Assembly: GCA_035255045.1 (NCBI GenBank)
Contig: DATFAA010000034.1
Location: 26,435-90,434 of the forward strand
DNA length: 64,000 bases
Direction: 5' to 3'
Origin: Rhodocyclaceae bacterium
Lineage (GTDB): Bacteria; Pseudomonadota; Gammaproteobacteria; Burkholderiales; Rhodocyclaceae
The notes under the pieces are model-generated. The model did not search any database. It was not told the origin of the DNA and worked only from the letters and a program-made list of their open reading frames with translations. The position numbers were made by a program, and so were the translations under genes. Positions 10,388 to 38,244 of this stretch are shown here, in pieces. Position 1 is the stretch's first letter. The number at the start of each line of letters is the position of its first letter.

Positions 10388-12340
10388 ATGCCTCGCCCCT
10401 CGCCCCGCCTCCGCAGCTATCTGCAGTTCGGTGCCATAGTTCTGGTGGCGGCCGCGCTGCCGGTCGTGGTCTATGTCCTGCTGGCCTATGGCCTGGCGGA
10501 CGAGACCCCCTACGAGACCGGCGAGGCCGCCGGCGGGCTGCTCCTGGTCGGGCTGCTGGCGGCCCTGGCCGTCGGCCTGCCTCTCGCCTTCCTGGTGCGC
10601 CGCCTGCAGCTCGCCCTGGGACGGCTGGCCGAGGCGGCCGGGGCAGGCAAGGCGGCGGTCGCGGCCGATACCCTGCGCCTGGCGGCCAGCGCCATGGAGA
10701 ACACCAGCGAAGGGATGATGGTGGTAGACGAGAGCGACATCATCCTGGCCGTCAATCGGGCCTTCACCGAGATCACCGGCTACGGCGCCGACGAGGCGCT
10801 GGGTCGCAGCCCCAGGCTGCTGCGCTCCGACCGCCACGACGAGGCCTTCTTCCGCTCCCTGTGGGAAACCCTGCAATCCACCGGCCGCTGGCAGGGGGAG
10901 ATCTGGAATCGGCGCAAGAACGGCGAGATCTATCCCGAGTGGCTGACCATCAACCGGATTCCCGCCGGCGACGGCATCGGGACCTGCTACGTGGGGCTGT
11001 TCACCGACATCAGCGAGCAGCGGGAGAAGGAGGAGCGCACCCGCCACCTGGCCTTCCATGACGCCCTCACCGGGCTCCCCAACCGCTCCCTGCTGTTCGA
11101 CCGGCTCCAGCACGCCATGCTCAAGGCCGAGCGGGAAAAGCGGCGGCTGGCGGTGATGTTCGTCGATGTGGACGGCTTCAAGGGCATCAACGACACCCTG
11201 GGCCACGAGGTCGGCGACCTCCTGCTCCAGGAGGTGGCCAAGCGGCTCAGCACCTGTCTACGGGGTACCGACACGGTGGCCCGCATCGGCGGCGACGAAT
11301 TCGTCGTCCTCCTGGAGGATCTGGCGGAGCCGGAACACGCTGCCGGCGTCGCCGCCAATCTCATCGACGTCATTTCCCTGCCCCAGGAAATCGCCGGCCA
11401 TGCGCTCCAGGTGGGCGTCTCCGTCGGCATCGCCCTCTACCCCGAGGACGGCGGCCGGGCCGTCGAGCTGATGAAGGCTGCCGACACCGCCATGTACGCG
11501 GCCAAGGAGGAGGGCAAGGGGGTCTTCCGCTTCTTCCACGCTGCCATGACCGAACGGGCCGCCCGCCGCCTCGAACTGGAAAACGATCTGCGCCGGGCCG
11601 TCCGGGAAGGCGAGCTGGAACTCCATTACCAGCCCCTGGTGCGCCTGGACACCCGGCTGCCCGGCGGGGTCGAGGCCCTGGTGCGCTGGCGCCATCCCGA
11701 GCGGGGCCTCTTGGCCCCCGGCGATTTCATCCTCCTGGCCGAGGAAACCGGCATCGTGGCCGGCATCGACGACTGGGTCCTGACCCAGGCCTGCCGGCAG
11801 CTGGCGGAGTGGCGCCGGCGGGGCATCGACACCAGCATCGCCGTCAACCTCTCGGCCCGGCGGCTGCAGCAGGGCGACCTGCCCGGGCGCATCGCCGCCC
11901 TCGCCGAGGAGCACGGCATCGCTCCCGGCGGCCTCCAGGTCGAGGTGGCGGAAACCCTGCTCATGTCCGACCCGGAAAAGTACGGCAAAGTCCTGGGCGG
12001 GTTGCGGGAGATCGGCGTCGCCGTGGCGGTGGATAATTTCGGCACCGGCCGTTCCGGCCTCGCCCATCTGCGCCGGCTGGCCGTCGACACCCTCAAGATC
12101 GACCGTTCCCTGGTGGCCGCCATCGCCAGCGAGCCGGCGGCCCAGATCGTCCGCGCCACCGTGGCCATCGCCCAGATCCTGGGCTTCGAGCTGGTGGCCG
12201 AGGGAGTCGAGACCCGGGAACAGGCCCAAGCCCTGTGGAAGACGGGCTGCCCCGTGGCCCAGGGCTTTCTCTTCGCCCGTCCCGAGGCGGCCGATATCAC
12301 CGAGCTGTGGCTGGCGACCCGGGCCCTGTCCCAGGGCTGA
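10388..12340 (+). CDS. membrane-anchored PAS-GGDEF-EAL c-di-GMP turnover protein
   Basis: Two N-terminal TM segments and a PAS domain (ITGYGADEALGRSPRLL). The GGDEF domain has an RGTD I-site and RIGGDEF. The EAL domain reads VEALVRWRHPERG. Confidence 0.9.
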   Translation: MPRPSPRLRSYLQFGAIVLVAAALPVVVYVLLAYGLADETPYETGEAAGGLLLVGLLAALAVGLPLAFLVRRLQLALGRLAEAAGAGKAAVAADTLRLAASAMENTSEGMMVVDESDIILAVNRAFTEITGYGADEALGRSPRLLRSDRHDEAFFRSLWETLQSTGRWQGEIWNRRKNGEIYPEWLTINRIPAGDGIGTCYVGLFTDISEQREKEERTRHLAFHDALTGLPNRSLLFDRLQHAMLKAEREKRRLAVMFVDVDGFKGINDTLGHEVGDLLLQEVAKRLSTCLRGTDTVARIGGDEFVVLLEDLAEPEHAAGVAANLIDVISLPQEIAGHALQVGVSVGIALYPEDGGRAVELMKAADTAMYAAKEEGKGVFRFFHAAMTERAARRLELENDLRRAVREGELELHYQPLVRLDTRLPGGVEALVRWRHPERGLLAPGDFILLAEETGIVAGIDDWVLTQACRQLAEWRRRGIDTSIAVNLSARRLQQGDLPGRIAALAEEHGIAPGGLQVEVAETLLMSDPEKYGKVLGGLREIGVAVAVDNFGTGRSGLAHLRRLAVDTLKIDRSLVAAIASEPAAQIVRATVAIAQILGFELVAEGVETREQAQALWKTGCPVAQGFLFARPEAADITELWLATRALSQG

Positions 12341-12518: not shown

Positions 12519-12908
12519 ATGACCGAAGCGGTCCGGGACGCAGATCGGCTGGCCCTCGGCGTGGCGGAATTGGATGCTGCCCAGGCGCGCTTCCTGGAGC
12601 AGGCCGCGGCCCTGGCCCGGGCCGGCGACACCGACTTCCCGGCCCTCTTCGACGCCCTGGTGGAGGACACCCGCCGCCGCTTCGACCGCGAGGGCGAGCT
12701 GATGCGGGCCAGCGCCTATCCCGCCTGGGAAGAGCACGAATACGAGCACCGCCGCATCCTTGAGGAAATGGGCCACCTTACCCGGCGGGTGGCCGCCGGC
12801 CGGATCGCCATGGCCCAGGCCTACGTCGAGGGGCTGCCCATCTGGTTCGCCAACCACCGGGCGATCGTGGACGCCGCCCTGGCGGCCTGGCTCAAGGCTC
12901 GCCCCTAA
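12519..12908 (+). CDS. hemerythrin-like (HHE cation-binding) protein
   Basis: 129 aa predicted four-helix protein with His/Glu metal-ligand patterns (FDREGELM, EEHEYEHRRILEE, ANHRAIVD) typical of bacteriohemerythrins. Confidence 0.7.
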   Translation: MTEAVRDADRLALGVAELDAAQARFLEQAAALARAGDTDFPALFDALVEDTRRRFDREGELMRASAYPAWEEHEYEHRRILEEMGHLTRRVAAGRIAMAQAYVEGLPIWFANHRAIVDAALAAWLKARP

Positions 12909-15900
12909 CCTCTTTCCCCACCCGCGTCCGCCATTTCCCGCCGCATGAAGGCGGTGCACTCCGCCGCCGGCAGCGGGCGGCTGAAGTGGTAACCCTGGGC
13001 GAAGTCGCACTCCAGGCCGCGCAGGAAATCGAGCTGGGCGGTGGTCTCCACCCCTTCGGCCACCACCGCCAGGCCCAGGCTGTGGGCGAGGGAGATGGTG
13101 GCGGCGCTGATGGTGGCGTCGTTGCTGTCGTGCTCGATGTCCATGACGAAGGAGCGGTCCAGCTTCAGGCGGTCCAGGGGCAGCCGCTTCAGGTAGGCCA
13201 GGGACGAATAGCCGGTGCCGAAGTCGTCGATGGCGAGCTCGATGCCCTCGGCCCGCAGGGCGTTGAGGAAGGCGATGGTGCACTCCGGATGCTGCATGGC
13301 GACGCTCTCGGTGATCTCGAGCTCCAGGCTCCTGCCGTCCAGCCCGTGGCGGGCCAGCTGGGAGATGATGAATTCCTGCAGGGAGGCGTCCCGCAGCTGG
13401 TGGGCGGACAGGTTCACCGCCATGCGCTCCAGGGCGATGCCATCCCGGCGCCAAGCCGCCAGCTGGGCCAGGGCTTCCCCGATGACCCAGCGGCCCAGGG
13501 GCAGGATGAGGCCGGTGTCTTCGGCCACCGGCACGAATTTCATGGGCGGGACCAGGCCCTTGTCCGGGTGCCGCCAGCGCACCAGGGCCTCGACGCCGAC
13601 GACGCGGCCGCTGGCCACATCCACCTGGGGCTGGTAATGGAGCTGGAACTCCCCCCGCTCCAGGGCGCGCCGCAGCCCACCTTCCAGGGCCAGCCGCTCG
13701 GCGGTGGCCTCGTTCATGGCGGCGGCGAAGAACTGGTAGTTGTTCCGCCCCATGGCCTTGGCGTGGTACATGGCCGTGTCGGCATTCTTCATCAGTTCCT
13801 CGACGCTTTCCCCGTCCTTGGGATAGAGGCTGATGCCGATGCTGGGAGTGGAGTGCAGTGCCTGGTCCGCCACCCGGTAGGGCTCTCCCAGGCGGTGCAG
13901 CAGCTTGTCAGCCAGCACCGGGACGGCGGCGTCATCCACCTGGCTCAGCACCACCACGAACTCGTCGCCTCCCAGGCGGGCGACGATGTCGCTCTCCCGG
14001 ACCGATTCCCGCAGGCGCTGGGCTACTTCCACCAGCAGGAAGTCGCCGACGTGGTGGCCCAGGGTATCGTTGATGTCCTTGAAGCGGTCCATGTCGATGA
14101 ACATCACCGCCGCCTGCCGGGCCTCCCGGTGGGCCATGGCCAGGGCCTGGTCGAGGCGGCCGTGGAGATGGAAGCGGTTGGGCAGCTGGGTGAGGGCGTC
14201 GTGGTGGGCCAGGTAGTGGATGCGCTCCTCGGCCGCCTTGCGCTCGGTGATGTCGGTGAAGCTGCCGATGTGGTGGGTGACGCGGCCTTCCTCATCCCGC
14301 ACCACGGAAATGGTGAGCCACTTGGGATAGACATGGCCGTCCTTGTGGCGGTCCCAGACCTCGCCCTGCCAGCTGCCCTTGCGCTTGATCGATTCCCACA
14401 TGTTCCGGTATTCCGCCGGGCAGCTGCGGCCGGAGGCGAGAATCCTGGGGTTCTGGCCGATGACCTCTTCCGGGGTATAGCCGGTGACGGTGGTGAAGGC
14501 GTGGTTGACTTCGACGATGCGGTTCTCGTGATCCGTCACCATCAGGCACTCGCCGCTGTGGTCGAAGACGCTGGCCAGCAGCCGGATGCGGTTCTCCGCC
14601 TGCTGGTATCCGGAAATGTCCTCGACCACGGAGAGGGCCTGCGGCTCGCCGTCCGGGGAGCTGATCAGGGAGCCGGACAGGCGCACCGCCACCCGGCTGC
14701 CGTCCTTGCGGATGAACTGCTTCCGGTACGGGCCGTAACGCCCGGTGCTCCCGACGGCCTCCAGCTGCCCGCTGTCGTCCTCGGCGTGGCTGGCGGGGGT
14801 GATGTCCTGGTAGGTGAGGCGGGCCAGCTCCGCCGCCGTGTAGCCGGTGATGGCGCAAAAGGCCGGGTTGGCCGCGACGAAGCGGCCATCGGACAAACGG
14901 TTCACGATATGCCCGACCGGCGCTTCGTCGAACAGGGAACGGAAGCGCTGCTCGTTTTCCTTCAGGGCCTGGTTGGACGCGTCCGCCAGCTGGAGCTGGC
15001 GGCGGTGGCGGAAGTGCATGCGGGTCAGGATGGCCATGAAGAGCAGGGGCAGGATGGCGAAGTAGGCGGTTCCCCTGACCCATTCCCGGTTGATGTCGTT
15101 GCCTCCCAGGCCCACCATCAGCACCAGGGGCCACTCGTCCAGGCGGCGGAAGGCCGACAGGCGGTCGCTGCCGTCCACCACCGAGCGGTGGCGCAGCACG
15201 CCTTCGCTCGAGCGGCTGAGGCCGTCCCGGAAGAGGGCGCCGTGGGCCACCGAGTTGCCCACCTGGCCCTCCACGTAGGGCACCCGGGCCATGACGATGC
15301 CGTCGCTGCGCATGACGGCGATCTGGGTCCGGCGGTCGGGGTCGACCGAAATATAGAGGCGGCCGAAGTAGTCGGGGTCGATGGTCGCCACCACGACCCC
15401 CAGGATGGCGCCACCGGGGGACCGGATGGGCAGGCTGAAGGGCATCAGCCATTCCGGTTCCTGACTGCCCGCCAGACGGGGTTTGATCGGGCTGCCCACA
15501 TACATTCCGCCGGACGTGCGGTCGGCCATCCAGTTGCGGAAGTAATCACGGTCTCCGACATCCACGGGGGCCAGTAACGGGCGGCGGGTCGAGGCCACCA
15601 GCTTTCCCTTGGCGTTGACTACCGAGACCGTGCGCAGGTACGGAAGCTTGGGCATCTCCTGGGCGAGCAGGGCGCGCAGGGCGGCCTGGTCGGCGAAACT
15701 GGGCTCCTCCCGGCGGCCGATATGGATCGCCAAGTGGCTCAAGGCCAGCTGGGTCTCGGACACCGTCTTGGAAAGGTGCTCGTCCGCCAGCCGCACCATT
15801 CCCTGGAGGTACTCCTCCGACCGGCGCCACTGGGCGTAGTAGTCGTAAGCCGAATAGCCGATCAGGCAGATCAGGCCGATGGCGATGGTGAACCAGTGCC

Positions 15901-15970
15901 GGATGGACAGCTGGCGCCGCAAGCGGGCATAGCCGTGTCCCGCGTTTTCCTGCTTGTGTATCTGTGTCAT
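12905..15970 (-). CDS. Cache-PAS-PAS-GGDEF-EAL sensory c-di-GMP protein
   Basis: Start MTQIHKQENAG. A TM segment, a periplasmic Cache-like domain and a second TM segment are followed by two PAS domains. GGDEF has an RESD I-site and RLGGDEF. EAL reads VEALVRWRHPDKG. Confidence 0.9.
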   Translation of the reverse strand: MTQIHKQENAGHGYARLRRQLSIRHWFTIAIGLICLIGYSAYDYYAQWRRSEEYLQGMVRLADEHLSKTVSETQLALSHLAIHIGRREEPSFADQAALRALLAQEMPKLPYLRTVSVVNAKGKLVASTRRPLLAPVDVGDRDYFRNWMADRTSGGMYVGSPIKPRLAGSQEPEWLMPFSLPIRSPGGAILGVVVATIDPDYFGRLYISVDPDRRTQIAVMRSDGIVMARVPYVEGQVGNSVAHGALFRDGLSRSSEGVLRHRSVVDGSDRLSAFRRLDEWPLVLMVGLGGNDINREWVRGTAYFAILPLLFMAILTRMHFRHRRQLQLADASNQALKENEQRFRSLFDEAPVGHIVNRLSDGRFVAANPAFCAITGYTAAELARLTYQDITPASHAEDDSGQLEAVGSTGRYGPYRKQFIRKDGSRVAVRLSGSLISSPDGEPQALSVVEDISGYQQAENRIRLLASVFDHSGECLMVTDHENRIVEVNHAFTTVTGYTPEEVIGQNPRILASGRSCPAEYRNMWESIKRKGSWQGEVWDRHKDGHVYPKWLTISVVRDEEGRVTHHIGSFTDITERKAAEERIHYLAHHDALTQLPNRFHLHGRLDQALAMAHREARQAAVMFIDMDRFKDINDTLGHHVGDFLLVEVAQRLRESVRESDIVARLGGDEFVVVLSQVDDAAVPVLADKLLHRLGEPYRVADQALHSTPSIGISLYPKDGESVEELMKNADTAMYHAKAMGRNNYQFFAAAMNEATAERLALEGGLRRALERGEFQLHYQPQVDVASGRVVGVEALVRWRHPDKGLVPPMKFVPVAEDTGLILPLGRWVIGEALAQLAAWRRDGIALERMAVNLSAHQLRDASLQEFIISQLARHGLDGRSLELEITESVAMQHPECTIAFLNALRAEGIELAIDDFGTGYSSLAYLKRLPLDRLKLDRSFVMDIEHDSNDATISAATISLAHSLGLAVVAEGVETTAQLDFLRGLECDFAQGYHFSRPLPAAECTAFMRREMADAGGERG

Positions 15971-16078
15971 GAAACCCCGTGCCGGCGACCACAAAACCGG
16001 TCGGCGGCGGCCGGACTGTAAGGCCTGTCGGGAAATTTGTCGACGCGCGGGGGCCCCGGGAGGGCCGCTGCTCCTATG

Positions 16079-16804
16079 TCAGCGGCCTGTATCGGCCAGG
16101 GGCGGGGCGAGTTTCCGGCCCGGATCGGGGACGTGGATGGGGGCCTCGACCACGTTCGGATAGCGGTTCGATCCCTCGTCGACGCTGCCGGCGGCATTGA
16201 TGGTGACCCGGACGATGTAGTCCCCCTCGGGAATGCCGGTGATGTCGATCCACTGGCCGTCCAGCTGCCGGTCGTAGAGGTCGCCCCAGCCCGAGGTGAT
16301 GCCCTGGTTGGAGCACAGGTAGCCGTTGCTGGCGGTGCCGCTGTAGGCCAGGGAGTCCCGGAAGCAGAATCCCAGCTTGTGGCCGGCCACCGCCACGCTC
16401 CGGTCGTCGGCCCGCAGCAGCTCGTAGGCGGAGAAGTCGTTGATGTGGAAATGGCCGTGGCAGGGGGCGTACTCCAGCAGTTGGGCGTAGAGGTTGTTGG
16501 GGTCCGACAGGCGGCCGATCACCAGGTCGCCGTCGCCGGCGTTCATGACCACCGTGTCGAACTGCAGGAGGCGGCGGGTGCCGGCCGCCCCCACCACGCC
16601 TTCCCGCAGGGCGCAGCTTTCCCGGCCGAAATCCCGGTCCACGATGCCGAGGGTGGATTTGAAGCGTTCCGGGTCCACCGCCAGGTCCGGCTTGCCGTCG
16701 TTGCCGTAGATGGGAAAGACGGCGGCCACCGAGGCTCGTTCGCCCACCCCCTGGCAGGCCGCCAGAGCAAGCGGCAAAAGGCAGGCGAGAATGGGCTTGT
16801 GCAT
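16079..16804 (-). CDS. lysyl-oxidase-family copper amine oxidase-like lipoprotein
   Basis: GGAGGG Shine-Dalgarno sequence, start MHKPILACLLPLALAACQG (lipobox). PCHGHFHINDFSAYELL compares with human LOX SCHQHYHSMDEFSHYDLL. HKLGFCFRD and GDLYDRQLDGQWIDITGIPEGDYIVRV compare with HKASFCLED and [26 protein letters not shown]. Human sequences are from memory. Confidence 0.8.
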   Translation of the reverse strand: MHKPILACLLPLALAACQGVGERASVAAVFPIYGNDGKPDLAVDPERFKSTLGIVDRDFGRESCALREGVVGAAGTRRLLQFDTVVMNAGDGDLVIGRLSDPNNLYAQLLEYAPCHGHFHINDFSAYELLRADDRSVAVAGHKLGFCFRDSLAYSGTASNGYLCSNQGITSGWGDLYDRQLDGQWIDITGIPEGDYIVRVTINAAGSVDEGSNRYPNVVEAPIHVPDPGRKLAPPLADTGR

Positions 16805-16979
16805 GGCGTTTCCCTCCACGGCGCGATGAATCAGCATAGTTCCCGGCCGGGGCCGCAGACATCGGCTGCGGTCCCCAGACACGCGGCGGAAAAGGGGGTA
16901 ATGCCTTGGGGGGGAAACGCCCGGCAGGAGCCGGGCCTGCCGGCGCCGGCTACCTACCCGTTGCGGGGGGAGCGGGGCT

Positions 16980-17360
16980 TCAGTGGTGGGCGGTGGCGCC
17001 CTTGCCGGAACTGCGGGCCGTTGTCCGGCCGCTCCCCGCCATGCGGCGGCACTCCTCGGCGCAGCGCCGGCAAGCGGCGGCACATTCCTGGCAGTGGTCG
17101 TGCTTGTGCTTGGCGCACTCCTCGCCGCACAGGTCGCAGAGATGGGCGCAGGTGTCGCAGACCGCATTGGCGGCTTCGCTGCCCCGGGCCATACAGGCGG
17201 CGGCCAGCCGGCAAATGTCGGCGCAGTCCATGTCGAGGGCGATGCAGCGGGCCATCGCCTGGACATCGGGCTCGGCCAGGCAGGCCGTGGCGCAATGGTC
17301 GCAGGCGGTGGCGCAGGCCTGGCAGGCGTCGATGCAGGATTGGAATTGCTGATGGGCCAT
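16980..17360 (-). CDS. Cys-rich four-helix-bundle copper-binding protein (DUF326 / Csp3-YhjQ family)
   Basis: GGAGGA Shine-Dalgarno sequence, start MAHQQFQSCIDACQACATACDHCATAC. I count 20 Cys in 126 aa, in CxxxC/CxxC heptad-like spacing. No signal peptide. Confidence 0.8.
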   Translation of the reverse strand: MAHQQFQSCIDACQACATACDHCATACLAEPDVQAMARCIALDMDCADICRLAAACMARGSEAANAVCDTCAHLCDLCGEECAKHKHDHCQECAAACRRCAEECRRMAGSGRTTARSSGKGATAHH

Positions 17361-17462
17361 GATTTCCTCCGATTCGGCAGGCGGGCACCCGGGATTGGGC
17401 GCCCGCAGGTCCGGATCGGGAAGCAAGATGGCCTCCCGGGACGGCCGCGGCGGGCCGCTCCC

Positions 17463-17837
17463 TCACTTCTTGGTGATGGTGGCCTCTTCGATCAGCAGGG
17501 GGTAGGAGTAGCCCATGCCGAAGTCCCGGTTGACCACCACCACGCCGGTGACGGAAACCTGATCGCCGACGGCGGCGGTCTGCTGGCTGGTGACCACCAG
17601 GTTATTGCTGCCTTCGGCGCCGGTGCCGTCCTGCACATGGACGAAGTTACGCCGCATGATGCCGTTGTTCACCTTCACCACCTTGCCTTCGGCCCGGATG
17701 GTCTGGCCCGCCAGGGCGGCCTTGTTGTTGTTCAGTTCCGCGACGCTCTTCAGTTCGGCGTCGGCGGCCAGGGCGCCGAAGCAGGCGAGCCCCAGGGTGC
17801 CGACGAGTCCGGCGAAGGCGATGGATCGAATGTTCAT
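17463..17837 (-). CDS. small secreted protein, OB-fold-like, unknown function
   Basis: Sec signal MNIRSIAFAGLVGTLGLACFGALAADA. The beta-rich mature part contains GQTIRAEGKVVKV...GDQVSVTGVVVV. Good GC3 bias. Confidence 0.6.
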   Translation of the reverse strand: MNIRSIAFAGLVGTLGLACFGALAADAELKSVAELNNNKAALAGQTIRAEGKVVKVNNGIMRRNFVHVQDGTGAEGSNNLVVTSQQTAAVGDQVSVTGVVVVNRDFGMGYSYPLLIEEATITKK

Positions 17838-17915: not shown

Positions 17916-19255
<1,340 letters not shown>

Positions 19256-19380: not shown

Positions 19381-19701
19381 ATGACGACGACACTGCCGGC
19401 CATGGATGGCGAGGGCTATCTCATCGAACCGAAGGAATGGGACGAGGACGTGGCCCGCGCCCTGGCCGCCCGGGAGAACATCGAGCTGGAGGACGATCAT
19501 TGGGAAGTCCTCCGTTTCATGCGGGCCTACTACGAGGAGCACCAGATCGCGCCGGACGCCCGCCACGCCATCAAGCACCTGCAGGCCCGGGTCGGTCCCG
19601 AGGCCCGCAACCGCATGTTCGAGCTCTTTCCCTACGGCTACGTCGCCCAGGCCTGCAAGATCGCCGGCATGAAGCGGCCGCGGGCCTGGAGCACGGGCTG
19701 A
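19381..19701 (+). CDS. TusE/DsrC/DsvC-family sulfur-relay-like protein lacking the penultimate Cys
   Basis: DGEGYLIEPKEWDEDVA...HWEVLRFMRAYYEEHQIAPDARH...LFPYGYVAQACKIAGMKRPRAWSTG shows the family fold motifs throughout. The C-terminal arm ends without Cys. Confidence 0.85.
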   Translation: MTTTLPAMDGEGYLIEPKEWDEDVARALAARENIELEDDHWEVLRFMRAYYEEHQIAPDARHAIKHLQARVGPEARNRMFELFPYGYVAQACKIAGMKRPRAWSTG

Positions 19702-19883
19702 CCTGATCCCGGCCGTGGCGGACTTGCCTGTACTCCCGCGCTTGTGCAGGCAAGGCGCCATGCCGGCTTTTTCCTCCGCCCCCTGCCGGAAACCACCCCT
19801 GCAACATGCGCATGACGCCCCATGGGCTTGGCGCTGGCGATGCATTCCAATTAGGGCCTGCATTATCCAAGCGGGGAGGCGCC

Positions 19884-20177
19884 ATGAACGTACTGATCAC
19901 CCAGGCCATCAGGGAAGGCCGTTTGCTGCGGCTGACCTATCAATACCAGGCCAGAACCATCGAGCCCCACGTCCTCGGACTCACCAAGGATCGGCGGGAA
20001 GCCCTGCTGTGCCGGCAGCTGCAGCCCCTGGCGGCGGACGGCGAGGGCTGGCGCCTGTTCTACCTGGCCGGGATTTCCAACCTGCGCATGCTCGACGACC
20101 GCTTCGCGGCGCCGCCGGAAGAGATGCTGCCGCCCGTCGAGCACTTCTCGGCTACGTACGCCATTCTTCAGCCGTAG
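19884..20177 (+). CDS. stand-alone WYL-domain-like small protein
   Basis: GGGGAGG Shine-Dalgarno sequence. The product is MNVLITQAIREGRLLRLTYQYQARTIEPHVLGL...GWRLFYLAGISNLRMLDDRF. This follows the WYL pattern (R-l-x-f-x-Y...R-x-v-x-P...W-y-l...R-x-F-x-l-x-R-I). The 3' end overlaps the convergent kinase gene by 26 nt. Confidence 0.5.
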   Translation: MNVLITQAIREGRLLRLTYQYQARTIEPHVLGLTKDRREALLCRQLQPLAADGEGWRLFYLAGISNLRMLDDRFAAPPEEMLPPVEHFSATYAILQP

Positions 20178-21345
20178 GCGCCAGTTCGCGGTCGGCGGCG
20201 GCCGTGGCGGGCAGGGTGAAGTAGAAGGTGCTGCCGGCGCCTTCCCGGGAATCGACCCAGAGACGCCCGCCGTGGCGCTCCATGATGCGGGTGCAGATGG
20301 CCAGGCCGATGCCGCTGCCCGGGTATTCCTGCTGGGTGTGGAGGCGGCGGAAGATTTCGAACACCCGCTGGTGGTACTTGGGATCGATGCCGATGCCGTT
20401 GTCGGCGACGGAAAAAACCCACTCCTCCCCCTGGCGCTCCGCCGCCACGACGATCCGGGGCGTCTCGGCGGTGTTGTACTTGATGCCGTTCTCGATCAGG
20501 TTCTGCAGCACCTGGGCGAGCTGAATGCGGTCCGCTCCGACGGTGGGCAGCCGGCTGCAGGCCACTTCGGCCCACCGTTCCCGGATCCGTTCGGCGAGGT
20601 TGGCCTTGACCTCCTCGAACAGGCGCTGGCAGTCGGTAGCCTCGAAGGGGCGGGCCTGGGAGTCCAGGCGGGCGTAGGCCAGGAGGTCGTCGATGAGGGA
20701 CTGCATGCGGTTCGTGCCCTCGGCGACCCGGGCCATCCATTCCTCGGCCTCCGGGTCCAGCCGGCCCGCCATGTTGCGGCGCAGGAGCTGGGTGAACAGG
20801 GAGATGGAACGGAGCGGCGTCTGCAGGTCATGGGCCGCCACATGGGCGAAGTGCTGCAGGTCCAGGTTGCTCCTCAGGAGCGCCTCGTTGGCCAGGCGCA
20901 GTTCCTCCTCCACCCGCAGGCGCTCGGCGATCTCGCTGCGCAGCTCCTCATTGACCGCCTGCAGCTGGCGCGGACTGGGAATGCCGAGGGCCCGGGGCAG
21001 CATCGGCCAGAGGGTGACGGCGGTGGCGACCGAAATCAGGGCGGTGAGGGCCTTGAGTCCGGCGTCGAGCCAGTAGAGCGGCTGCCAGAGGATCAGGGTG
21101 CCCACCAGGTGGGTAGTGCCGCAGGCCAGGATGAAGGCGGCGAACATCCAGAGCAGCCACGGGTAGGGGAAATCCGGCCGCCGCCGGGCGAAGTAGCCGA
21201 TGGCCACCGGCATGGAGAAATAGGAAACGCCGATGAGCAGGTCGCTGACCACGTAGGTGCCGATCAGCGGCGCTGACCAGCTGATGCAGTAGCCGTGGGG
21301 CAGGAAGCCGTTCTGGATCAGGAGGCGTCCCAGTTCTTCGATCAT
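20152..21345 (-). CDS. sensor histidine kinase with N-terminal ethylene-binding-domain-like (ETR1-type) 3-TM sensor
   Basis: Start MIEELGRLLIQNGFLPHGYCISW. Residues about 20-130 align to the ETR1 ethylene-binding domain (see findings). A coiled coil, a HisKA domain (FAHVAAHDLQTPLRSI) and a HATPase domain (GIGLAICTRIMERHGG) follow. Confidence 0.85.
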   Translation of the reverse strand: MIEELGRLLIQNGFLPHGYCISWSAPLIGTYVVSDLLIGVSYFSMPVAIGYFARRRPDFPYPWLLWMFAAFILACGTTHLVGTLILWQPLYWLDAGLKALTALISVATAVTLWPMLPRALGIPSPRQLQAVNEELRSEIAERLRVEEELRLANEALLRSNLDLQHFAHVAAHDLQTPLRSISLFTQLLRRNMAGRLDPEAEEWMARVAEGTNRMQSLIDDLLAYARLDSQARPFEATDCQRLFEEVKANLAERIRERWAEVACSRLPTVGADRIQLAQVLQNLIENGIKYNTAETPRIVVAAERQGEEWVFSVADNGIGIDPKYHQRVFEIFRRLHTQQEYPGSGIGLAICTRIMERHGGRLWVDSREGAGSTFYFTLPATAAADRELAPTAEEWRT

Positions 21346-21444
21346 CGCAACTCCCGGCAGGAGGGCCGGGAAGGCCGGCCGACCCCGCATGATAGCCGGA
21401 TTATGGCTTTCGGCCGATGCCCACGGTCTATGCCAGCCGGCTTT

Positions 21445-24697: not shown

Positions 24698-25648
24698 ATG
24701 GCACTTTCCACCAACGACCAGGCACTGCTGCAGGAAATGGACCTCTCCGACGAGGAGATCGAGCTGCGCAAGGCCTTCCTCGAACTCGGCCCCGAAGACA
24801 TCGCCACTCTCCAGCGCATGGACAGCTTGGCCCGGCAGTATGCCGATCCGGTGATCGAGGATTTCTACGGGCATATCCTGTCCTTCAAGGAGACGGCGGA
24901 CTTCTTCCGCGACCCCGCCACCCTGCGGCGGGTCAAGGAACTGCAGAAGCGCTACTTCCTCGACCTCACCAGCGGCGAGTTCGGGCGGGAGTACACCGCC
25001 AACCGGGTTCGCCTCGGCGTCATCCACCAGCGCATCAACCTGGCCATCAAGTGGTACCTGGGGATGTTCAGCTTCTACCTGCGGGCGGTGTCCAGCCGGC
25101 TCACCGAGGCTCACCCCGACGAGCCGCAGCGGGTGCTCGACACCCTCATGTCCCTGGCCAAGATTATCTTTTTCGATATCGGCATCCAGGTGGATACCTA
25201 CATCTACCAGCGGGAACGGACCATCCGCCAGCAGCAGGAGGCCATCCGGGAGCTGTCGACCCCGGTGCTGCAGGTGCGGGAGCGGCTCCTCATCCTGCCC
25301 ATCATCGGCATCATCGACACCTTCCGGGCCCGCCAGCTCACCGAGAACCTGCTCAAGGCCATCCGCGACAACCGGGCCAAGGTGGTGGTCATGGACATCA
25401 CCGGCGTGGCGGCGGTGGATTCCCGGGTCGCCAATCATCTGCTGCAGACCGTCGCCGCCGCCAAACTAATGGGGGCGACAGTGATCATCACCGGCCTCTC
25501 CGCCGAAGTGGCCCAGACCCTGGTCACCCTGGGCGTGGACCTGTCGACCCTCAACACCGTCGGCGACCTCCAGGGCGGCATCGAGGAAGCCGAGCGGATG
25601 CTCGGCTACAAGGTCATCAATACCCGCGAGGCGCCGCCCGCACCCTGA
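24698..25648 (+). CDS. rsbR: stressosome sensor RsbR homologue: N-terminal globin-coupled-sensor (protoglobin) domain plus C-terminal STAS domain
   Basis: AAAGGAGG Shine-Dalgarno sequence. The N-terminal ~160 aa look like a sensor globin (VIEDFYGHIL..., VRLGVIHQRINLAIKWYLG with a candidate proximal His). The STAS domain contains ILPIIGIIDTFRARQL and MDITGVAAVDSRVANHLL. Confidence 0.85.
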   Translation: MALSTNDQALLQEMDLSDEEIELRKAFLELGPEDIATLQRMDSLARQYADPVIEDFYGHILSFKETADFFRDPATLRRVKELQKRYFLDLTSGEFGREYTANRVRLGVIHQRINLAIKWYLGMFSFYLRAVSSRLTEAHPDEPQRVLDTLMSLAKIIFFDIGIQVDTYIYQRERTIRQQQEAIRELSTPVLQVRERLLILPIIGIIDTFRARQLTENLLKAIRDNRAKVVVMDITGVAAVDSRVANHLLQTVAAAKLMGATVIITGLSAEVAQTLVTLGVDLSTLNTVGDLQGGIEEAERMLGYKVINTREAPPAP

Positions 25649-25663
25649 CCCCCGGGAGGGAAC

Positions 25664-26035
25664 ATGGCGATTCCTATCCTGAAGCAGGGCGACATGCTCA
25701 TCGCTTCCATCCAGGCCGCCCTCGGTGACCGCGACCTCATCGAATTGCGGGACGAGCTGGTGGCCAAGGTCGGGCGCTACCGCTCCCGGGGGGTGGTGGT
25801 GGATGTCACCGCCCTCGATGTCCTCGATTCCTTCGCCGTCCGCACCCTGCGGGGCATCGCCCACGTCACCCAGCTCCGTGGGGCGACCACGGTGGTGGTC
25901 GGCATCCAGCCGGAAGTGGCCTTCGCCATGGTGCAGCTGGGCCTGCAACTGGAAGGGATCGAGACCGCCCTCGACCTCGAGGAGGGAATGGAAATGCTCT
26001 CCCGGCGTCTTAAGGGGGATGGCCCCCATGGCTGA
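25664..26035 (+). CDS. rsbS: stressosome scaffold RsbS homologue (single STAS domain)
   Basis: IPILKQGDMLIASIQ...VVVDVTALDVLDSFAVRTL...GIQPEVAFAMVQLGL...IETALDLEEG parallels B. subtilis RsbS, from memory, including the phosphorylatable Ser in the LDSF motif. Confidence 0.85.
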   Translation: MAIPILKQGDMLIASIQAALGDRDLIELRDELVAKVGRYRSRGVVVDVTALDVLDSFAVRTLRGIAHVTQLRGATTVVVGIQPEVAFAMVQLGLQLEGIETALDLEEGMEMLSRRLKGDGPHG

Positions 26036-26429
26036 CGAGGTCAGGATTTCCATCCGGCAGGACATGGACATCGTCACGGCCCGCCAGCTCGGACGGGAAA
26101 TGGCCGGCCGCATCGGCTTCGCCGGCAGCGACCTCACGGTCATCGCCACCGCCATTTCGGAAGTGGTGCGCAACATCGTGGTCTACGCCCAGTCCGGCGA
26201 GCTGATCCTGGAAGCGATCCACAACGGCGGGCGGTCCGGCATTCTCATCGTCGCCCGGGACCGGGGGCCGGGCATCCCGGACGTGGCCCAGGCCATGATG
26301 GACGGCTACTCCACCGGCGGTAGCCTGGGCCTCGGCCTGCCCGGCGCCAAGCGCCTGATGGATGACTTCGAGATCGTGTCGACGGTGGGCCAGGGCACGA
26401 CAGTGACCATGAAAAAATGGAAACGATGA
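26028..26429 (+). CDS. rsbT: RsbT-like serine kinase / switch protein (HATPase_c, anti-sigma-factor type)
   Basis: The ATG at 26028 overlaps rsbS by 8 nt. The product is MADEVRISIRQDMDIVTARQLGREMA...EVVRNIVVYA...DRGPGIPDV...GLGLPGAKRLMD, 133 aa. Confidence 0.85.
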   Translation: MADEVRISIRQDMDIVTARQLGREMAGRIGFAGSDLTVIATAISEVVRNIVVYAQSGELILEAIHNGGRSGILIVARDRGPGIPDVAQAMMDGYSTGGSLGLGLPGAKRLMDDFEIVSTVGQGTTVTMKKWKR

Positions 26430-27043
26430 GCGACACCCTTCCCGGCCTGGAGTGGACCGTGGCCCAGCGCCCGATGCCGGGCGAGACGGTCAGCGGCGAC
26501 CGCTGCCTGGTCCGGCCCTGGGGCGGCGGCATCCTCCTGGCCGCCATGGACGGCCTCGGCCACGGCGAGGAGGCCGCCCGGGCGGCCCGCGCCGCCACCG
26601 GCTGCCTGGCCGGGGAGCGCCCGGCCAGCGATCTCGCCGGCGCCATCCGGGAGTGCCACGAGGTCCTGCGGGGAACCCGCGGCGTGGCCCTGACCGCCGC
26701 CCTCTACCATCCCGCCCAGGGACGCCTGCAGTGGGTCAGCGTCGGCAATGTGGAGGCCGTCCTCTGGCAGCGGCCGGGGCATCCCGAGGGTCGGCGCCAG
26801 TGCGTCACCCCGCGGGGGGGCGTGGTCGGCTACCAGCTGCCGACCCTCCACGTCGCCACCCTCGACGTGGCGGCGGGGGACGTCTTCTGCCTGGCCACCG
26901 ACGGCATCGCCTCCGCCTTCGTCGAGAAGACGCCGGCCTTCCTCGAGCCCCGGCGCCTGGCCGGCTACATCATGGAGCGCTACGGCAAGGGCACTGACGA
27001 CGCCCTGGTGCTGGCCGCCCGTTTCGGCGAGGCCGAGCCATGA
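26417..27043 (+). CDS. rsbX: RsbX-like PP2C/SpoIIE-family feedback phosphatase
   Basis: It overlaps rsbT by 13 nt. Motifs are PGETVSGDRCLV...LAAMDGLGHGEEAA...LATDGI, the metal-binding Asp motifs of PP2C. Confidence 0.8.
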   Translation: METMSDTLPGLEWTVAQRPMPGETVSGDRCLVRPWGGGILLAAMDGLGHGEEAARAARAATGCLAGERPASDLAGAIRECHEVLRGTRGVALTAALYHPAQGRLQWVSVGNVEAVLWQRPGHPEGRRQCVTPRGGVVGYQLPTLHVATLDVAAGDVFCLATDGIASAFVEKTPAFLEPRRLAGYIMERYGKGTDDALVLAARFGEAEP

Positions 27044-28104
27044 CGGAAACCGGCCTAGCCCTCCTCTCCCAGAACTACAGCAAGGCGCTGGGCGACTTCC
27101 TGGTCAAGTTCGACGAGAACGCCCGGCTGCAGGCCTATGAGCTGGGGCGCCAGGCCCTGGCGGAGGGCGTCGGGCTCCTGGACCTGGTCACCATCCACCA
27201 CCTCGCCCTGGGCTCCTTCATCGGCCACAACCACGGCCGGATCAGCAAGATCTGGCTGTCCCGGGCCGGGGAATTCCTCAGCGAGTGCCTGAGCCCCTTC
27301 GAGATGAGCCAGCGGGGCTATCGGGAGGCGAACCAGAGCCTGCGCCGCATGAACGAGGTGCTGCAGGAGAAGAACGACGAGATCAGCCGGGCCAACCGGG
27401 AGCTGGAAGCCTTCAGCTACTCCGTGGCCCACGATCTGCGGGCCCCTCTGCGCAGCATCGACGGCTTTTCCCGCATCCTTCTGCGGGACAACGCCGACCA
27501 ACTCGACGAGTCCGGCCGGGAATACCTGGGGCTGGTGCGGGAATCGGCCCAGCGCATGGGCCACCTCCTGGAGGACATGCTCAACCTGGCCCGCTATTCC
27601 CGGGCCGAAATGCACTTCGAGCCCGTCGATCTGGCCACCGTCGCCCGGGAGGTGATGGGGCGGGTGCGCCAGGAGCAGCCGGAGCGCCGGCTGGAATTCA
27701 GCGTCCCCGCCACCCTGCCGGCCCGGGGCGACCCCGTCCTGCTGGCGGCGGTCCTGGAGAACCTGCTGGGCAACGCCTGGAAATACTCCCGGCCCCGGGA
27801 GGTGGCCCGCATCGAACTGGGCTGGTCGCCGGAGCAGGGCGCCTACTTCGTGCGGGACAACGGGGTCGGCTTCGACATGGCCTACGCGGGCAAACTCTTC
27901 AAGGTCTTCCAGCGCCTCCACTCGGTCGCCCAGTTCGAGGGCACCGGGGTCGGCCTGGCCATCGTCGAGCGCATCGTCGAACGCCACGGCGGCCGGGTCT
28001 GGGCCGACGCCAAGGTGGACCAGGGTTGCACCTTCTATTTCACCCTGACCGATTCCCGCACCCAGGCCTCCCAGGCCGTCCCTTCCATGAATCCAGGCCG
28101 GTAA
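27040..28104 (+). CDS. histidine kinase with N-terminal RsbU_N-type (RsbT-docking) domain
   Basis: ATGA overlap with rsbX. The N-terminal ~90 aa helical domain resembles the RsbU N-domain (YSKALGDFL...LQAYELGRQAL...LDLVTIHH...EFLSECLSPFEM). A coiled coil, HisKA (FSYSVAHDLRAPLRSI) and HATPase follow. Confidence 0.85.
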   Translation: MTETGLALLSQNYSKALGDFLVKFDENARLQAYELGRQALAEGVGLLDLVTIHHLALGSFIGHNHGRISKIWLSRAGEFLSECLSPFEMSQRGYREANQSLRRMNEVLQEKNDEISRANRELEAFSYSVAHDLRAPLRSIDGFSRILLRDNADQLDESGREYLGLVRESAQRMGHLLEDMLNLARYSRAEMHFEPVDLATVAREVMGRVRQEQPERRLEFSVPATLPARGDPVLLAAVLENLLGNAWKYSRPREVARIELGWSPEQGAYFVRDNGVGFDMAYAGKLFKVFQRLHSVAQFEGTGVGLAIVERIVERHGGRVWADAKVDQGCTFYFTLTDSRTQASQAVPSMNPGR

Positions 28105-28504: not shown

Positions 28505-30574
28505 ATGTCAGCCCTGAAGGCGATTTTCTCCCGCCTGCACGCCGGAGAAAGCGAAACGCCGCCGCCGGCGCCCGAAAACCGGCGGCTCCACGGCGAAAGA
28601 AGGAAGACCGAGCGCCGGGGGAACATCTTTCCCTTCTACGACCGGGAGCAACGCCTGCGCTTCGCCGCCCAGGCGGCGGGATTCGGCACCTACGACCTGG
28701 ACTGCCTCACCGGCCACAACCACTGGTCCCCGGAGCTGAAAGCCATCGCCGGCCTGCCGCCGGAACCGGATACGGTGCCGATGGAGCAGGTGGCATCCCT
28801 CATCCACCCCGACGACCGGGAGCGCGTCCTGGAGAAGCTCCGGGACTCCCTGGAGCCGCGCAGCAGCGGCGACATCGACGACGAGCGCCGCCTGGTGCGG
28901 CCGGACGGCACGGTGCGCTGGGTGAGGATGCGGGGCCGCACCTTCTTCACCGGCGCGGGGGAAGAGCGGCGCCCCCTGGCGGCCACCGGCATCGTCGTGG
29001 ACATCACCGCCAGCCGGCAGGCCCAGCAGGAGGTCCTGGACAGCCAGGCCGAGCTGTCCGGCCTGCTGGATGCGGCCATCGACGCCATCATCAGCATCGA
29101 CGACGACCAGCGCGTCGTGCGCTTCAACCAGTCGGCCAGCCGGGTGTTCCGGTGCACCGCCGAGGACGCCATCGGCTCCCCCATCGAGCGCTTCATCCCC
29201 GAACGCCAGCGGGCCGCCCACCGCCGGGACGTTGGGCGCTTCGCCCAAGGTGGCGTCACCTCCCGCACCATGGGCATGCCCGGGGTCTTTTCCGGCCTGC
29301 GGGCGGATGGCGAGGAATTCCCCATCGAGGCCACCATCGCCAAGGTGCAGGTCGGGAACCGGCGGCAGCTTACGGTCTTCCTGCGGGACATCACCGAGCG
29401 CAAGCAAGCCGAGGAAGCCCTGCGCCAGAGCAAGGAAGACCTGGAGCTGGCGGTGCGTGGCGCCGCCGTCGGCGTCTGGAGCTGGGACGTGCGCACCGGC
29501 AAGGTGATGTGCTCGGACCGCTGCAGCCAGCTTTTCGGCCTGGAACGGGATTGCGTCTCCACCTTCGACGAGATGCTGTCCCGGGTCCATTCCGACGACC
29601 GGGAACGCATCGTCGCCGCCATCGGCCGCACCCTGGAGAGTGGCGAGGAATACAACGTCGAATTCCGGGTGGTCTGGCCCGATGGCGGCGTCCACTGGAT
29701 CGCCGCCATCGGCCGGGACCTCTACGAAGCCGGCAGCGGCCGGCCGGTGGGCATGCGGGGCATCGGCCTCGACATCACCGAGCGCAAGCGCCACGAGGAG
29801 GCCCGGGCGGAGTGGACCCGGCAGCTGGAGACCCGCATCCAGGAACGCACCGCCGAGCTGGTCCGGGCCAACGAGGCCCTCGAGCGCAGCAACCTGGAGC
29901 TGCAGCAGTTCGCCTTCGTCGCCGCCCACGACCTGCAGACCCCCCTGCGCTCCATCAGCGGCTTCGCCCAGCTCCTGCAGAAAGACTACGAGGGCCGCCT
30001 CGATCCCCGGGCCGAAGCCTGGCTGGAGCAGCTGGTGCGCTCGGCCCACCGCATGCGGGACATCATCCACGACATCCTGGCCTATTCCCGGGTCGAGTCC
30101 CGGGGCAACGTCTTCCGGCCCACCGACTTCAACGAACTGGTCGACGACGTCCTGGCCACCCTGGACGCCCCCATCCGGGAGACCGGCGCCCGGGTCAGCC
30201 GGGGCGACCTGCCCACCCTCCTCGGGGACCGCACCCAGCTCGCCCAGGTGCTGCAGAACCTCATCGACAACGCCCTCAAGTACCACGGTGAGGAAGCGCC
30301 CCGGGTCCATGTCTCGGCCCGCCGGGACGGCGGGGAGTGGGTCTTCGCGGTGCGGGACAACGGCATCGGCATCGCCGAGAAGCACCGGGAGAACATCTTC
30401 GACATTTTCCGGCGCCTGCATACCCAGCAGGAATATCCGGGCACGGGCATCGGGCTGGCCATCTGCCGCCGGGTGATCCATCGCCACGGCGGGCGCATCT
30501 GGGTGGAGTCCCAACCCGGCAGGGGCAGCACCTTCCTGTTCACCCTGCCGGATCGCCACGGGGAGGCGGCATGA
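28505..30574 (+). CDS. cytoplasmic triple-PAS sensor histidine kinase (Cph1-type kinase core)
   Basis: GGAAGG Shine-Dalgarno sequence. Three PAS/PAC repeats (each ending ...DITERK/DITASR), then FAFVAAHDLQTPLRSI and a HATPase domain. Confidence 0.9.
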   Translation: MSALKAIFSRLHAGESETPPPAPENRRLHGERRKTERRGNIFPFYDREQRLRFAAQAAGFGTYDLDCLTGHNHWSPELKAIAGLPPEPDTVPMEQVASLIHPDDRERVLEKLRDSLEPRSSGDIDDERRLVRPDGTVRWVRMRGRTFFTGAGEERRPLAATGIVVDITASRQAQQEVLDSQAELSGLLDAAIDAIISIDDDQRVVRFNQSASRVFRCTAEDAIGSPIERFIPERQRAAHRRDVGRFAQGGVTSRTMGMPGVFSGLRADGEEFPIEATIAKVQVGNRRQLTVFLRDITERKQAEEALRQSKEDLELAVRGAAVGVWSWDVRTGKVMCSDRCSQLFGLERDCVSTFDEMLSRVHSDDRERIVAAIGRTLESGEEYNVEFRVVWPDGGVHWIAAIGRDLYEAGSGRPVGMRGIGLDITERKRHEEARAEWTRQLETRIQERTAELVRANEALERSNLELQQFAFVAAHDLQTPLRSISGFAQLLQKDYEGRLDPRAEAWLEQLVRSAHRMRDIIHDILAYSRVESRGNVFRPTDFNELVDDVLATLDAPIRETGARVSRGDLPTLLGDRTQLAQVLQNLIDNALKYHGEEAPRVHVSARRDGGEWVFAVRDNGIGIAEKHRENIFDIFRRLHTQQEYPGTGIGLAICRRVIHRHGGRIWVESQPGRGSTFLFTLPDRHGEAA

Positions 30575-31023
30575 ACTCATCTCTCGCGGCCAGGCGGGCG
30601 GCGGAAGTCCTGTTGGTGGAAGACAACATGGGGGACATCCTGCTCACCCGGGAGGGCTTCAAGCGCAGCAATTTCCCGGTCAATCTCCACCACGTGGAAA
30701 ACGGCGAGGACTGCCTGGCCTTCCTGCGCAAGGAAGGTGCCTTCATCGACGTCCCCACCCCCGACCTCATCCTCCTCGACCTCAACATGCCGGTGATGGA
30801 CGGCCGCGAGGTGATGAAGACCCTGGTGGCGGACCAGCGCTTCCGCCATTACCCGGTGGTGGTGCTCACCACCTCGGCCAACGAGCAGGACATCCAGGAA
30901 ATGTACGAGCTGCGCTGCAGCACCTACATCGTCAAGCCCCTGGATTTCGAGGAGTTCCAGCGCATCATCCAGGTCATCGCCCAGTACTGGTTCACCGTCG
31001 CCACCCTGCCCGGCAGCGTCTAG
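30571..31023 (+). CDS. single-domain CheY-like response regulator (Rcp1-like)
   Basis: ATGA overlap with the kinase. VLLVEDNMGDILL...PDLILLDLNMPVMDGREV...YPVVVLTTSANEQDI..YEL..STYIVKP...YWFTVATLP closely mirrors cyanobacterial Rcp1, from memory. Confidence 0.9.
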   Translation: MNSSLAARRAAEVLLVEDNMGDILLTREGFKRSNFPVNLHHVENGEDCLAFLRKEGAFIDVPTPDLILLDLNMPVMDGREVMKTLVADQRFRHYPVVVLTTSANEQDIQEMYELRCSTYIVKPLDFEEFQRIIQVIAQYWFTVATLPGSV

Positions 31024-38144: not shown

Positions 38145-38244
38145 GATCTTGCGAACCTCTAAGGAAGCCTACCGGCAAGTTACCACGAAATTCCCTGGCC
38201 AAAAGGCGGCTAGGTGCGAGTACGTATTTTCCAATTTGGTGTCT

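Follow-up and report, generated by a model that had tools for sequence, protein, structure and literature searches.

The window analysed here, a stretch of 64,000 nucleotides from an uncultured Rhodocyclaceae bacterium (assembly GCA_035255045.1, contig DATFAA010000034.1, positions 26,435 to 90,434), contains on its minus strand, at 20152..21345, a complete coding sequence, including the TAG stop codon, for a sensor histidine kinase of 397 amino acids with the domain order ETR1_N-HisKA-HATPase_c. Judged from its sequence, the protein is almost certainly a member of the ETR1_N family of ethylene-binding domains (EBD). Its most likely function, by homology with characterised receptors, is that of a Cu(I)-dependent, ethylene-regulated membrane sensor kinase, a reading to which a probability of about 0.7 is given; by the same analogy, ethylene is probably, though slightly less surely, the physiological ligand. 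The protein joins a known and populous bacterial family, and its architecture is not new.

The minus-strand open reading frame (ORF) spans 20152..21390, and the true start codon lies within it, at 21345 (MIEELG...). This start is considered correct because P0001, an NCBI entry of 397 aa that is 100% identical to the product and is titled 'MAG TPA: ATP-binding protein [Rhodocyclaceae bacterium]', begins there, as do all close homologs (MIEELG or MLDELG); a GGGAG Shine–Dalgarno sequence is also present upstream of the ATG. The limits of the gene given in a first-pass annotation of this DNA were therefore confirmed, and both peptide strings quoted in that annotation occur verbatim in the translation. 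The GC content at third codon positions (GC3) is 0.90 in the kinase frame, in a window of about 69% GC, and this codon-position pattern marks the ORF as a genuine gene.

The sensor domain is represented by residues 27-120 (20986..21267, minus strand, as for all features of the kinase below), matching the Pfam family ETR1_N (PF25487) at model positions 2-95 of 97 with 127.5 bits, against a cutoff of 27 bits (E = 2.4e-37). BLASTP comparison with residues 1-135 of AzoEtr1 of Azospirillum brasilense Sp7 gave 48% identity over 125 residues with no gaps (E = 3e-44), and comparison with the plant ethylene receptor fragment P0121 gave 36% identity (E = 2e-20); the plant database sequences used for comparison were short fragments only. 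AzoEtr1 was recovered by tblastn from an A. brasilense Sp7 replicon as an ORF of 525 aa starting with MFGGVEAF, in agreement with the stated length and the cloning primer in PMC11819568 (2025), where saturable ethylene binding was reported for residues 1-130 of this protein. The ETR1-like character of the N-terminal module, claimed previously, is borne out by the profile as well as by the pairwise matches to AzoEtr1 and the plant fragment.

The residue alignment comprised the target, AzoEtr1, four plant fragments, one bacterial protein consisting of the EBD only and the N-terminus of ETR1, the last of these with a numbering that reproduces D25, F26, T68, C65, H69 and K91 of PMC10266040. The invariant columns, in ETR1 numbers, are C6, D25, Y32, S34, P36, Y41, F58, F61, I62, C65, G66, H69, K91, S98, T101 and P110. 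In the target, Asp35 (21241..21243) is equivalent to ETR1 Asp25; the segment Y42-F-S-M45-P46 (21208..21222) contains the equivalents of Tyr32, Ile35 (here Met) and Pro36; C75-G-T-T-H79 (21109..21123), located in the second transmembrane (TM) helix, corresponds to C65-G-A-T-H69 with the Cu(I) ligands Cys65 and His69; and Lys98 in TM3 (21052..21054) corresponds to Lys91, the signal-output residue paired with Asp. The counterparts listed in the first-pass annotation, namely, D35, Y42, P46, C75-G-T-T-H79 and K98, are accordingly all present.

Conservation of these positions was assessed in 118 close full-length homologs and 147 diverse representatives. The Cys equivalent to the Cu(I) ligand is invariant in both sets (118/118 and 147/147), and the His equivalent is missing only from one diverse representative (118/118 and 146/147). 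Asp35, Lys98, Ser105 and Pro117, corresponding to ETR1 Asp25, Lys91, Ser98 and Pro110, are conserved in 97-100% of sequences across both sets; among the close homologs Asp35 is found in 118/118 and Lys98 in 117/118. Of the seven ETR1 residues that ethylene binding requires, the target keeps six unchanged: D35, Y42, P46, I72, C75 and H79. Tyr32 of ETR1, the equivalent of Y42, is reportedly included among the essential residues by Wang et al. in 2006. The essential role of I35, P36, I62, C65 and H69 of ETR1 in ethylene binding was described in PMC6586836, and Asp25, which orients the His and forms a bridge to Lys91, is likewise needed for binding (PMC10266040). Asn at position 35 was found in just three representatives (P0269, P0298 and P0303), and the same three alone have Asp at position 98 (3/3), a paired change that fits the contact published for Asp25 and Lys91; the three sequences may represent one lineage.

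The hydropathy profile of the sensor contains three peaks. Its topology is predicted as N-out, C-in, because the loop between TM1 and TM2 (ARRRPD) and the segment that follows TM3 (PRALGIPSPRQ) are rich in positive charges, in keeping with the positive-inside rule. An AlphaFold2 model, obtained from 38 sequences of the same architecture (mean predicted local distance difference test score, pLDDT, 82), places the TM helices at aa 25-55, 62-85 and 91-112, with pLDDT of 77-94 across the sensor. The expectation of three helices with the N-terminus outside is supported by these predictions. A phmmer search of residues 1-139 against the PDB gave no relevant match to a solved structure of the sensor.

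After TM3 the model contains a short turn and then an unbroken helix of 67 residues (aa 125-191), which passes through His172 and is followed by DHp helix 2 and the alpha/beta ATPase domain. Only 52 residues, modelled as one helix, lie between residue 121, where the TM3 helix region ends, and the H-box. Residues 125-171 (20833..20973) are assigned, from the model and the spacing classes, to a signalling helix, or coiled-coil linker, continuous with DHp helix 1. The distance from Pro117, at the end of TM3, to the phospho-accepting His takes nine values in 37 homologs that, like the target, have no PAS domain (38, 48, 55, 62, 66, 69, 73, 80 and 94 residues), all equal to 3 or 6 modulo 7 and forming two classes about one helical turn apart. 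Such length quantisation is that expected of a coiled-coil signalling helix and supports a rigid connector independently of the model. Pfam detected no GAF, PAS or receiver domain in the target even at E <= 1, as had been stated earlier for GAF.

The transmitter consists of the HisKA/DHp domain (aa 164-229, 20659..20856; E = 2.4e-15) with the phospho-acceptor His172 (20830-20832), invariant in 118/118 homologs, and the HATPase_c catalytic domain (aa 272-381, 20203..20532; E = 1.3e-29), in which the N, G1, F and G2 boxes are intact. Residues H172, N282, N286, D315, G319, F329, F332, G343, G345 and G347 are all invariant across the 118 homologs, and the kinase is apparently catalytically complete and active. 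The best solved matches of the transmitter core (aa 148-396) in the PDB are 8f71 and bacteriophytochrome kinases (E about 1e-42). A coiled coil leading straight into a Cph1-type HisKA/HATPase core, as the first-pass annotation had it, agrees both with these matches and with the continuous helix of the model.

Immediately before TM1, outside the Pfam model and in a predicted periplasmic position, the target carries the motif PHGYC (aa 16-20, 21286..21300), identified by homolog conservation. Its extended form, P-H-G-x-C-x-x-W, corresponds to aa 16-23 (21277-21300). The P, H, G and C of the motif are kept in 114-115 of the 118 close homologs and in 144-147 of the 147 diverse representatives; in the latter set C20 was found in 147/147, H17 in 146/147, and P16 and W23 in 145/147 each. 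The conservation of PHGxC thus equals that of the Cu(I) ligands. The motif aligns with the Cys6...Trp11 region of ETR1, the His being absent from plants, and its pLDDT is low in the AlphaFold2 monomer model. PHGxCxxW may serve in copper entry or in dimerisation on the periplasmic side.

A mechanism may be proposed by homology from PMC10266040, PMC6586836 and PMC11819568. By analogy with ETR1, SynEtr1 and AzoEtr1, the protein would form a homodimer with one Cu(I) per monomer, held by Cys75 and His79, with Asp35 orienting the His. Ethylene would partition into the membrane and bind copper as a pi-ligand; binding would perturb the Asp35-Lys98 bridge, and Ser105 and Pro117 would carry the change through TM3. 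A shift of register or rotation would then pass down the coiled coil to the DHp domain, lowering autophosphorylation of His172. Phosphotransfer would proceed to the Rcp-type receiver encoded at 30571-31023, which would be shared with a paralogous PAS-containing kinase, possibly with control of cyclic di-GMP as the output.

Several points weigh against ethylene regulation. The seventh essential position, Ile35, which alanine scanning showed to be required in ETR1 and which the first-pass annotation did not list, is Met45 in the target. The proposed direction of regulation, with ethylene inhibiting the kinase, is borrowed from ETR1 and from indirect evidence on SynEtr1. No ethylene-related genes were found in the 64-kb window, and the host is represented by a metagenome-assembled genome (MAG) with no evident plant association.

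Position 45 is occupied by Ile in 98 and by Met in 20 of the 118 close homologs, these 20 all belonging to the target's clade; among the 147 diverse representatives Ile occurs in 120, Met in 23 and Leu in 4. Met45 is a recurrent natural variant, carried by 16-17% of relatives. The replacement of Ile35 throughout the target's clade (20/118) would also fit a receptor with the same fold and Cu(I) site but another ligand, such as propene, isoprene, acetylene, carbon monoxide (CO) or isocyanides, with Met45 tuning the pocket. Other olefins and CO evoke weak responses from plant ethylene receptors, and the family, with 8,408 clusters, is larger and ecologically broader than plant-associated bacteria, including Novosphingobium from activated sludge. 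However, all other pocket residues needed for ethylene binding are kept, Met differs little from Ile in bulk or hydrophobic character, and the cited non-plant members that have been tested, namely, SynEtr1, AzoEtr1 and those of other cyanobacteria, bind ethylene (PMC11819568). A ligand other than ethylene is accordingly regarded as improbable.

The invariant copper ligands, together with the additional His/Cys motif of the predicted periplasmic segment, could also belong to a sensor of copper availability or envelope redox state, in which the kinase is switched as the Cys/His site, supplied via PHGxC, is filled or oxidised. Genes for a DUF326/Csp3-like protein and a lysyl-oxidase-like protein, located 3-4 kb from the target, agree with such a role. 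Against it, Cu(I) is bound by ETR1 with a dissociation constant of about 1e-15 M (PMC6586836), which is the behaviour of a cofactor rather than of a reversible signal, and the equivalents of Tyr32, Pro36 and Ile62, which are implicated in ethylene binding and are not known copper ligands, are conserved. The copper genes belong to a separate minus-strand operon, beyond a pair of SQR and DsrC genes on the opposite strand, and were found at none of the seven PAS-less homolog loci whose neighbourhoods were compared (P0044, P0058, P0035, Novosphingobium, P0002, P0092 and P0103). Copper sensing is therefore considered less likely still than sensing of another ligand. The first-pass annotation had noted the copper genes and left their relation to Cu(I) loading undecided; the genes do exist, but their linkage was rejected as functional evidence, and their proximity is probably coincidental because it was not seen in any of the seven loci.

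A chance or compositional match of hydrophobic helices, or an ORF that is not a real gene, is conceivable at 69% GC, where long ORFs often arise spuriously, many of them overlapping the present locus, but is already refuted by the Pfam score 100 bits over the cutoff, the GC3 of 0.90 in frame, the thousands of homologs with invariant polar residues within TM helices and the identical protein deposited in NCBI.

Among known systems, AzoEtr1 served as the comparator, being a validated ethylene receptor of a non-cyanobacterial bacterium. Similar to the target, AzoEtr1 carries PHGxC, has H79 and K98 under the same numbers, and is a non-hybrid histidine kinase that signals to a separate single-domain receiver. 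In contrast to the target, AzoEtr1 (525 aa) has a PAS domain between sensor and kinase and Ile at the position of ETR1 Ile35. Its core belongs to another histidine kinase subfamily (29% identity; H-box AHEMSQPL, versus AHDLQTPL in the target). The receiver gene lies immediately downstream of AzoEtr1, whereas the target is an orphan, and this receiver, AzoRR, is only 27% identical to the receiver encoded at 30571 in the window.

The three-helix Cu(I) sensor is shared with Arabidopsis ETR1 and ERS1, with about 35% domain identity. The target possesses the equivalents of Asp25, Tyr32, Pro36, Ile62, Cys65, His69, Lys91, Ser98 and Pro110, and the sensor is followed by a HisKA/HATPase transmitter in both. 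Plant receptors, unlike the target, insert a GAF domain, and ETR1 adds a receiver domain; they contain an N-terminal Cys4/Cys6 pair in place of PHGxC, and their TM2-TM3 loop is longer by 3 residues. Their signal passes mainly through CTR1 and not through a phosphorelay (PMC11819568). In the bacterial EBD receptor SynEtr1 (slr1212) of Synechocystis sp. PCC 6803, the output is phosphotransfer from the histidine kinase to a response regulator (PMC11819568, PMC7700396), but this protein, with a GAF domain that binds a chromophore, is a light sensor as well, and its regulator gene, slr1213, is adjacent. Cph1 and bacteriophytochrome kinases, the closest solved matches to the transmitter of the target, work with Rcp-type receivers like the one in the window; their input is a soluble PAS-GAF-PHY photosensor, whereas that of the target is a membrane sensor of the copper/ethylene type.

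The target would have to phosphorylate a separately encoded receiver, because it has neither a receiver domain nor an adjacent receiver gene. The lack of an adjacent gene had been stated earlier and holds: the nearest receivers are encoded at 30571 and at about 46.9 kb, the latter, the only other receiver in the window, being an OmpR-type regulator paired with a DUF4118 kinase. The candidate cognate receiver, inferred from sequence, is a stand-alone Rcp-type response regulator of 150 aa (30571..31023, plus strand), in which Response_reg is the sole domain. Its best relatives in the PDB are RcpA, Rcp1 and RcpB, phytochrome regulators of the class that pairs with this kinase type, and it is 62% identical to the receiver encoded directly downstream of P0044, an EBD histidine kinase of the same architecture. 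The gene of this receiver overlaps at its start the stop codon of a paralogous PAS-PAS histidine kinase (28505..30574, plus strand), which indicates translational coupling; the kinase core of this paralog is 59% identical to that of the target, and the H-box helices of the two are near-identical. The first-pass annotation had named this receiver for phosphotransfer profiling, and these similarities lend that choice indirect support.

Other observations speak against the pairing. The receiver gene is 9 kb off, and its translational coupling is with another kinase; at the DHp specificity positions the two kinases resemble each other without being identical (SISLFTQ in the target versus SISGFAQ in the PAS-PAS kinase); a third kinase with the same core, a dCache-PAS histidine kinase (38023-40578, plus strand; core 60% identical to that of the target), is also without a receiver; and no receiver is encoded near P0002, the closest PAS-less homolog (78% identical). 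The assignment of the 30571-31023 receiver as the partner of the target is accordingly tentative, with the odds somewhat against it.

Comparison of the seven PAS-less homolog loci revealed a small receiver gene immediately downstream of the kinase in four of them (P0044, P0058, P0035 and Novosphingobium), while the other three (P0002, P0092 and P0103) are orphans. At P0058 and P0035 the receiver gene is followed by a gene for a REC-(PAS)-GGDEF-EAL protein. Since related loci run in the order EBD histidine kinase, 150-aa receiver, REC-GGDEF-EAL protein, a cyclic di-GMP or biofilm-type output of the target is plausible by analogy.

Three kinases with Cph1-type cores, having EBD, PAS-PAS and dCache-PAS inputs and 59-60% core identity, are thus encoded within 20 kb together with one stand-alone Rcp-type receiver, and may form a many-kinases-to-one-receiver network. 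Immediately upstream of the pair of PAS-PAS kinase and receiver genes lies a partner-switching-type cluster (24698-28104, plus strand), headed by a haem gas-sensor domain and encoding a protoglobin-STAS protein, a STAS protein, a SpoIIE/PP2C phosphatase and an RsbU_N-HisKA-HATPase kinase. A broader proposal combines these features with the N-terminal motif: in the ancestral receptor PHGxC(xx)W would have served to admit copper or to lock the dimer, and the three Cph1-type kinases would converge on the one Rcp-type receiver beside the protoglobin/STAS cluster. In a non-plant habitat, the cell would in this way combine the signal of ethylene, or of some other gas that binds Cu(I), with those of gases sensed by haem. 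Taken as a whole, this proposal is speculative and rather unlikely.

To size the family, residues 1-135 were compared exhaustively, by phmmer, with 1.84 billion cluster representatives (clusters at 50% identity). At E <= 1e-3, 8,408 clusters were matched, at E <= 1e-10, 6,187, and at E <= 1e-30, 980; the proteins among the best 150 matches listed are 134 to 1,269 aa long. The 118 closest full-length homologs include 39 PAS-less proteins, like the target, and 79 with PAS insertions, like AzoEtr1. According to PMC7700396, ethylene-binding domain proteins with 'simple to complex' outputs are encoded by many proteobacteria; the domain is believed to have reached plants via the cyanobacterial ancestor of the chloroplast (PMC11819568). 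The earlier label 'plant-type' reverses the history of the domain, which belongs to a populous bacterial family of about 8,400 clusters.

Another carrier of the PAS-less layout, with a kinase of a different subfamily, is Novosphingobium sp. ES2-1, a cultured activated-sludge isolate whose conjugative plasmid p2 encodes a PAS-less EBD kinase of 384 aa (NZ_CP063447.1, 137603-139070; L090). A small receiver gene overlaps the end of this kinase gene, and a type II Cas9 gene adjoins it. The plasmid location hints at horizontal spread of the sensor, and the strain lends itself readily to testing. A scan of a genome collection, steered by kinase-core motifs, was uninformative for genomic context, as 79 of 80 loci encoded generic Cph1-type kinases without the sensor.

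Directly upstream of the target, on the same strand, the genes modABC of a molybdate transporter are located (23950 -> 21445, minus strand). modC and the target are separated by 99 bp, a stretch in which neither a consensus terminator nor a consensus promoter was detected; co-transcription of modABC and the target by read-through is possible. A functional linkage with modABC was not accepted, the arrangement being absent at the locus of the 78%-identical homolog and not recurring in the seven PAS-less loci. At its 3' end the target is overlapped by 26 bp by a convergent ORF of 123 aa (19806-20177, plus strand; GC3 0.80, a coding-like value), which has no Pfam or NCBIfam match. A second EBD gene was not found in the 64-kb window.

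Further downstream of the target, genes for SQR, a sulfide:quinone-reductase-like flavoprotein (17978-19255, plus strand), and a DsrC/TusE-family protein (19381-19701, plus strand) follow one another, which suggests a capacity for sulfur oxidation in this Rhodocyclaceae MAG. The minus-strand genes at 16079-17837 form a probable copper-related operon. It contains genes for a secreted protein of 124 aa (17463-17837), a DUF326/Csp3-like four-helix-bundle protein with 21 Cys (16983-17360) and a lysyl-oxidase-like protein (16079 to about 16980); lysyl-oxidase homologs are uncommon in bacteria. The gene at 17463-17837 was considered as the Csp3-like gene and rejected, as its product has a signal peptide and no cysteines. 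Three PAS- or dCache-linked GGDEF-EAL proteins, none with a receiver domain, are encoded at 10388-12340 (plus strand), 12905-15994 (minus strand) and 53937-56039 (minus strand), and a hemerythrin-like gene is present at 12519-12908; the region is unusually rich in signalling genes.

Bacterial EBD kinases are already represented in Pfam, have been reviewed, and were validated experimentally in Synechocystis and Azospirillum. The statement of the first-pass annotation that very few such domains outside plants and cyanobacteria have been tested stands, with the qualification that ethylene binding by the proteobacterial AzoEtr1 was demonstrated in 2025. The practical value of the target is that of a minimal model of 397 aa, in which a single rigid helix, constrained to heptad steps, leads from the sensor to a canonical, apparently active kinase. 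Autophosphorylation would report directly on the way in which the binding of a ligand to copper is signalled onwards. Finally, predicted ethylene sensing is extended to a Rhodocyclaceae lineage without an obvious plant link, which bears on the question whether ethylene is a general microbial signal.

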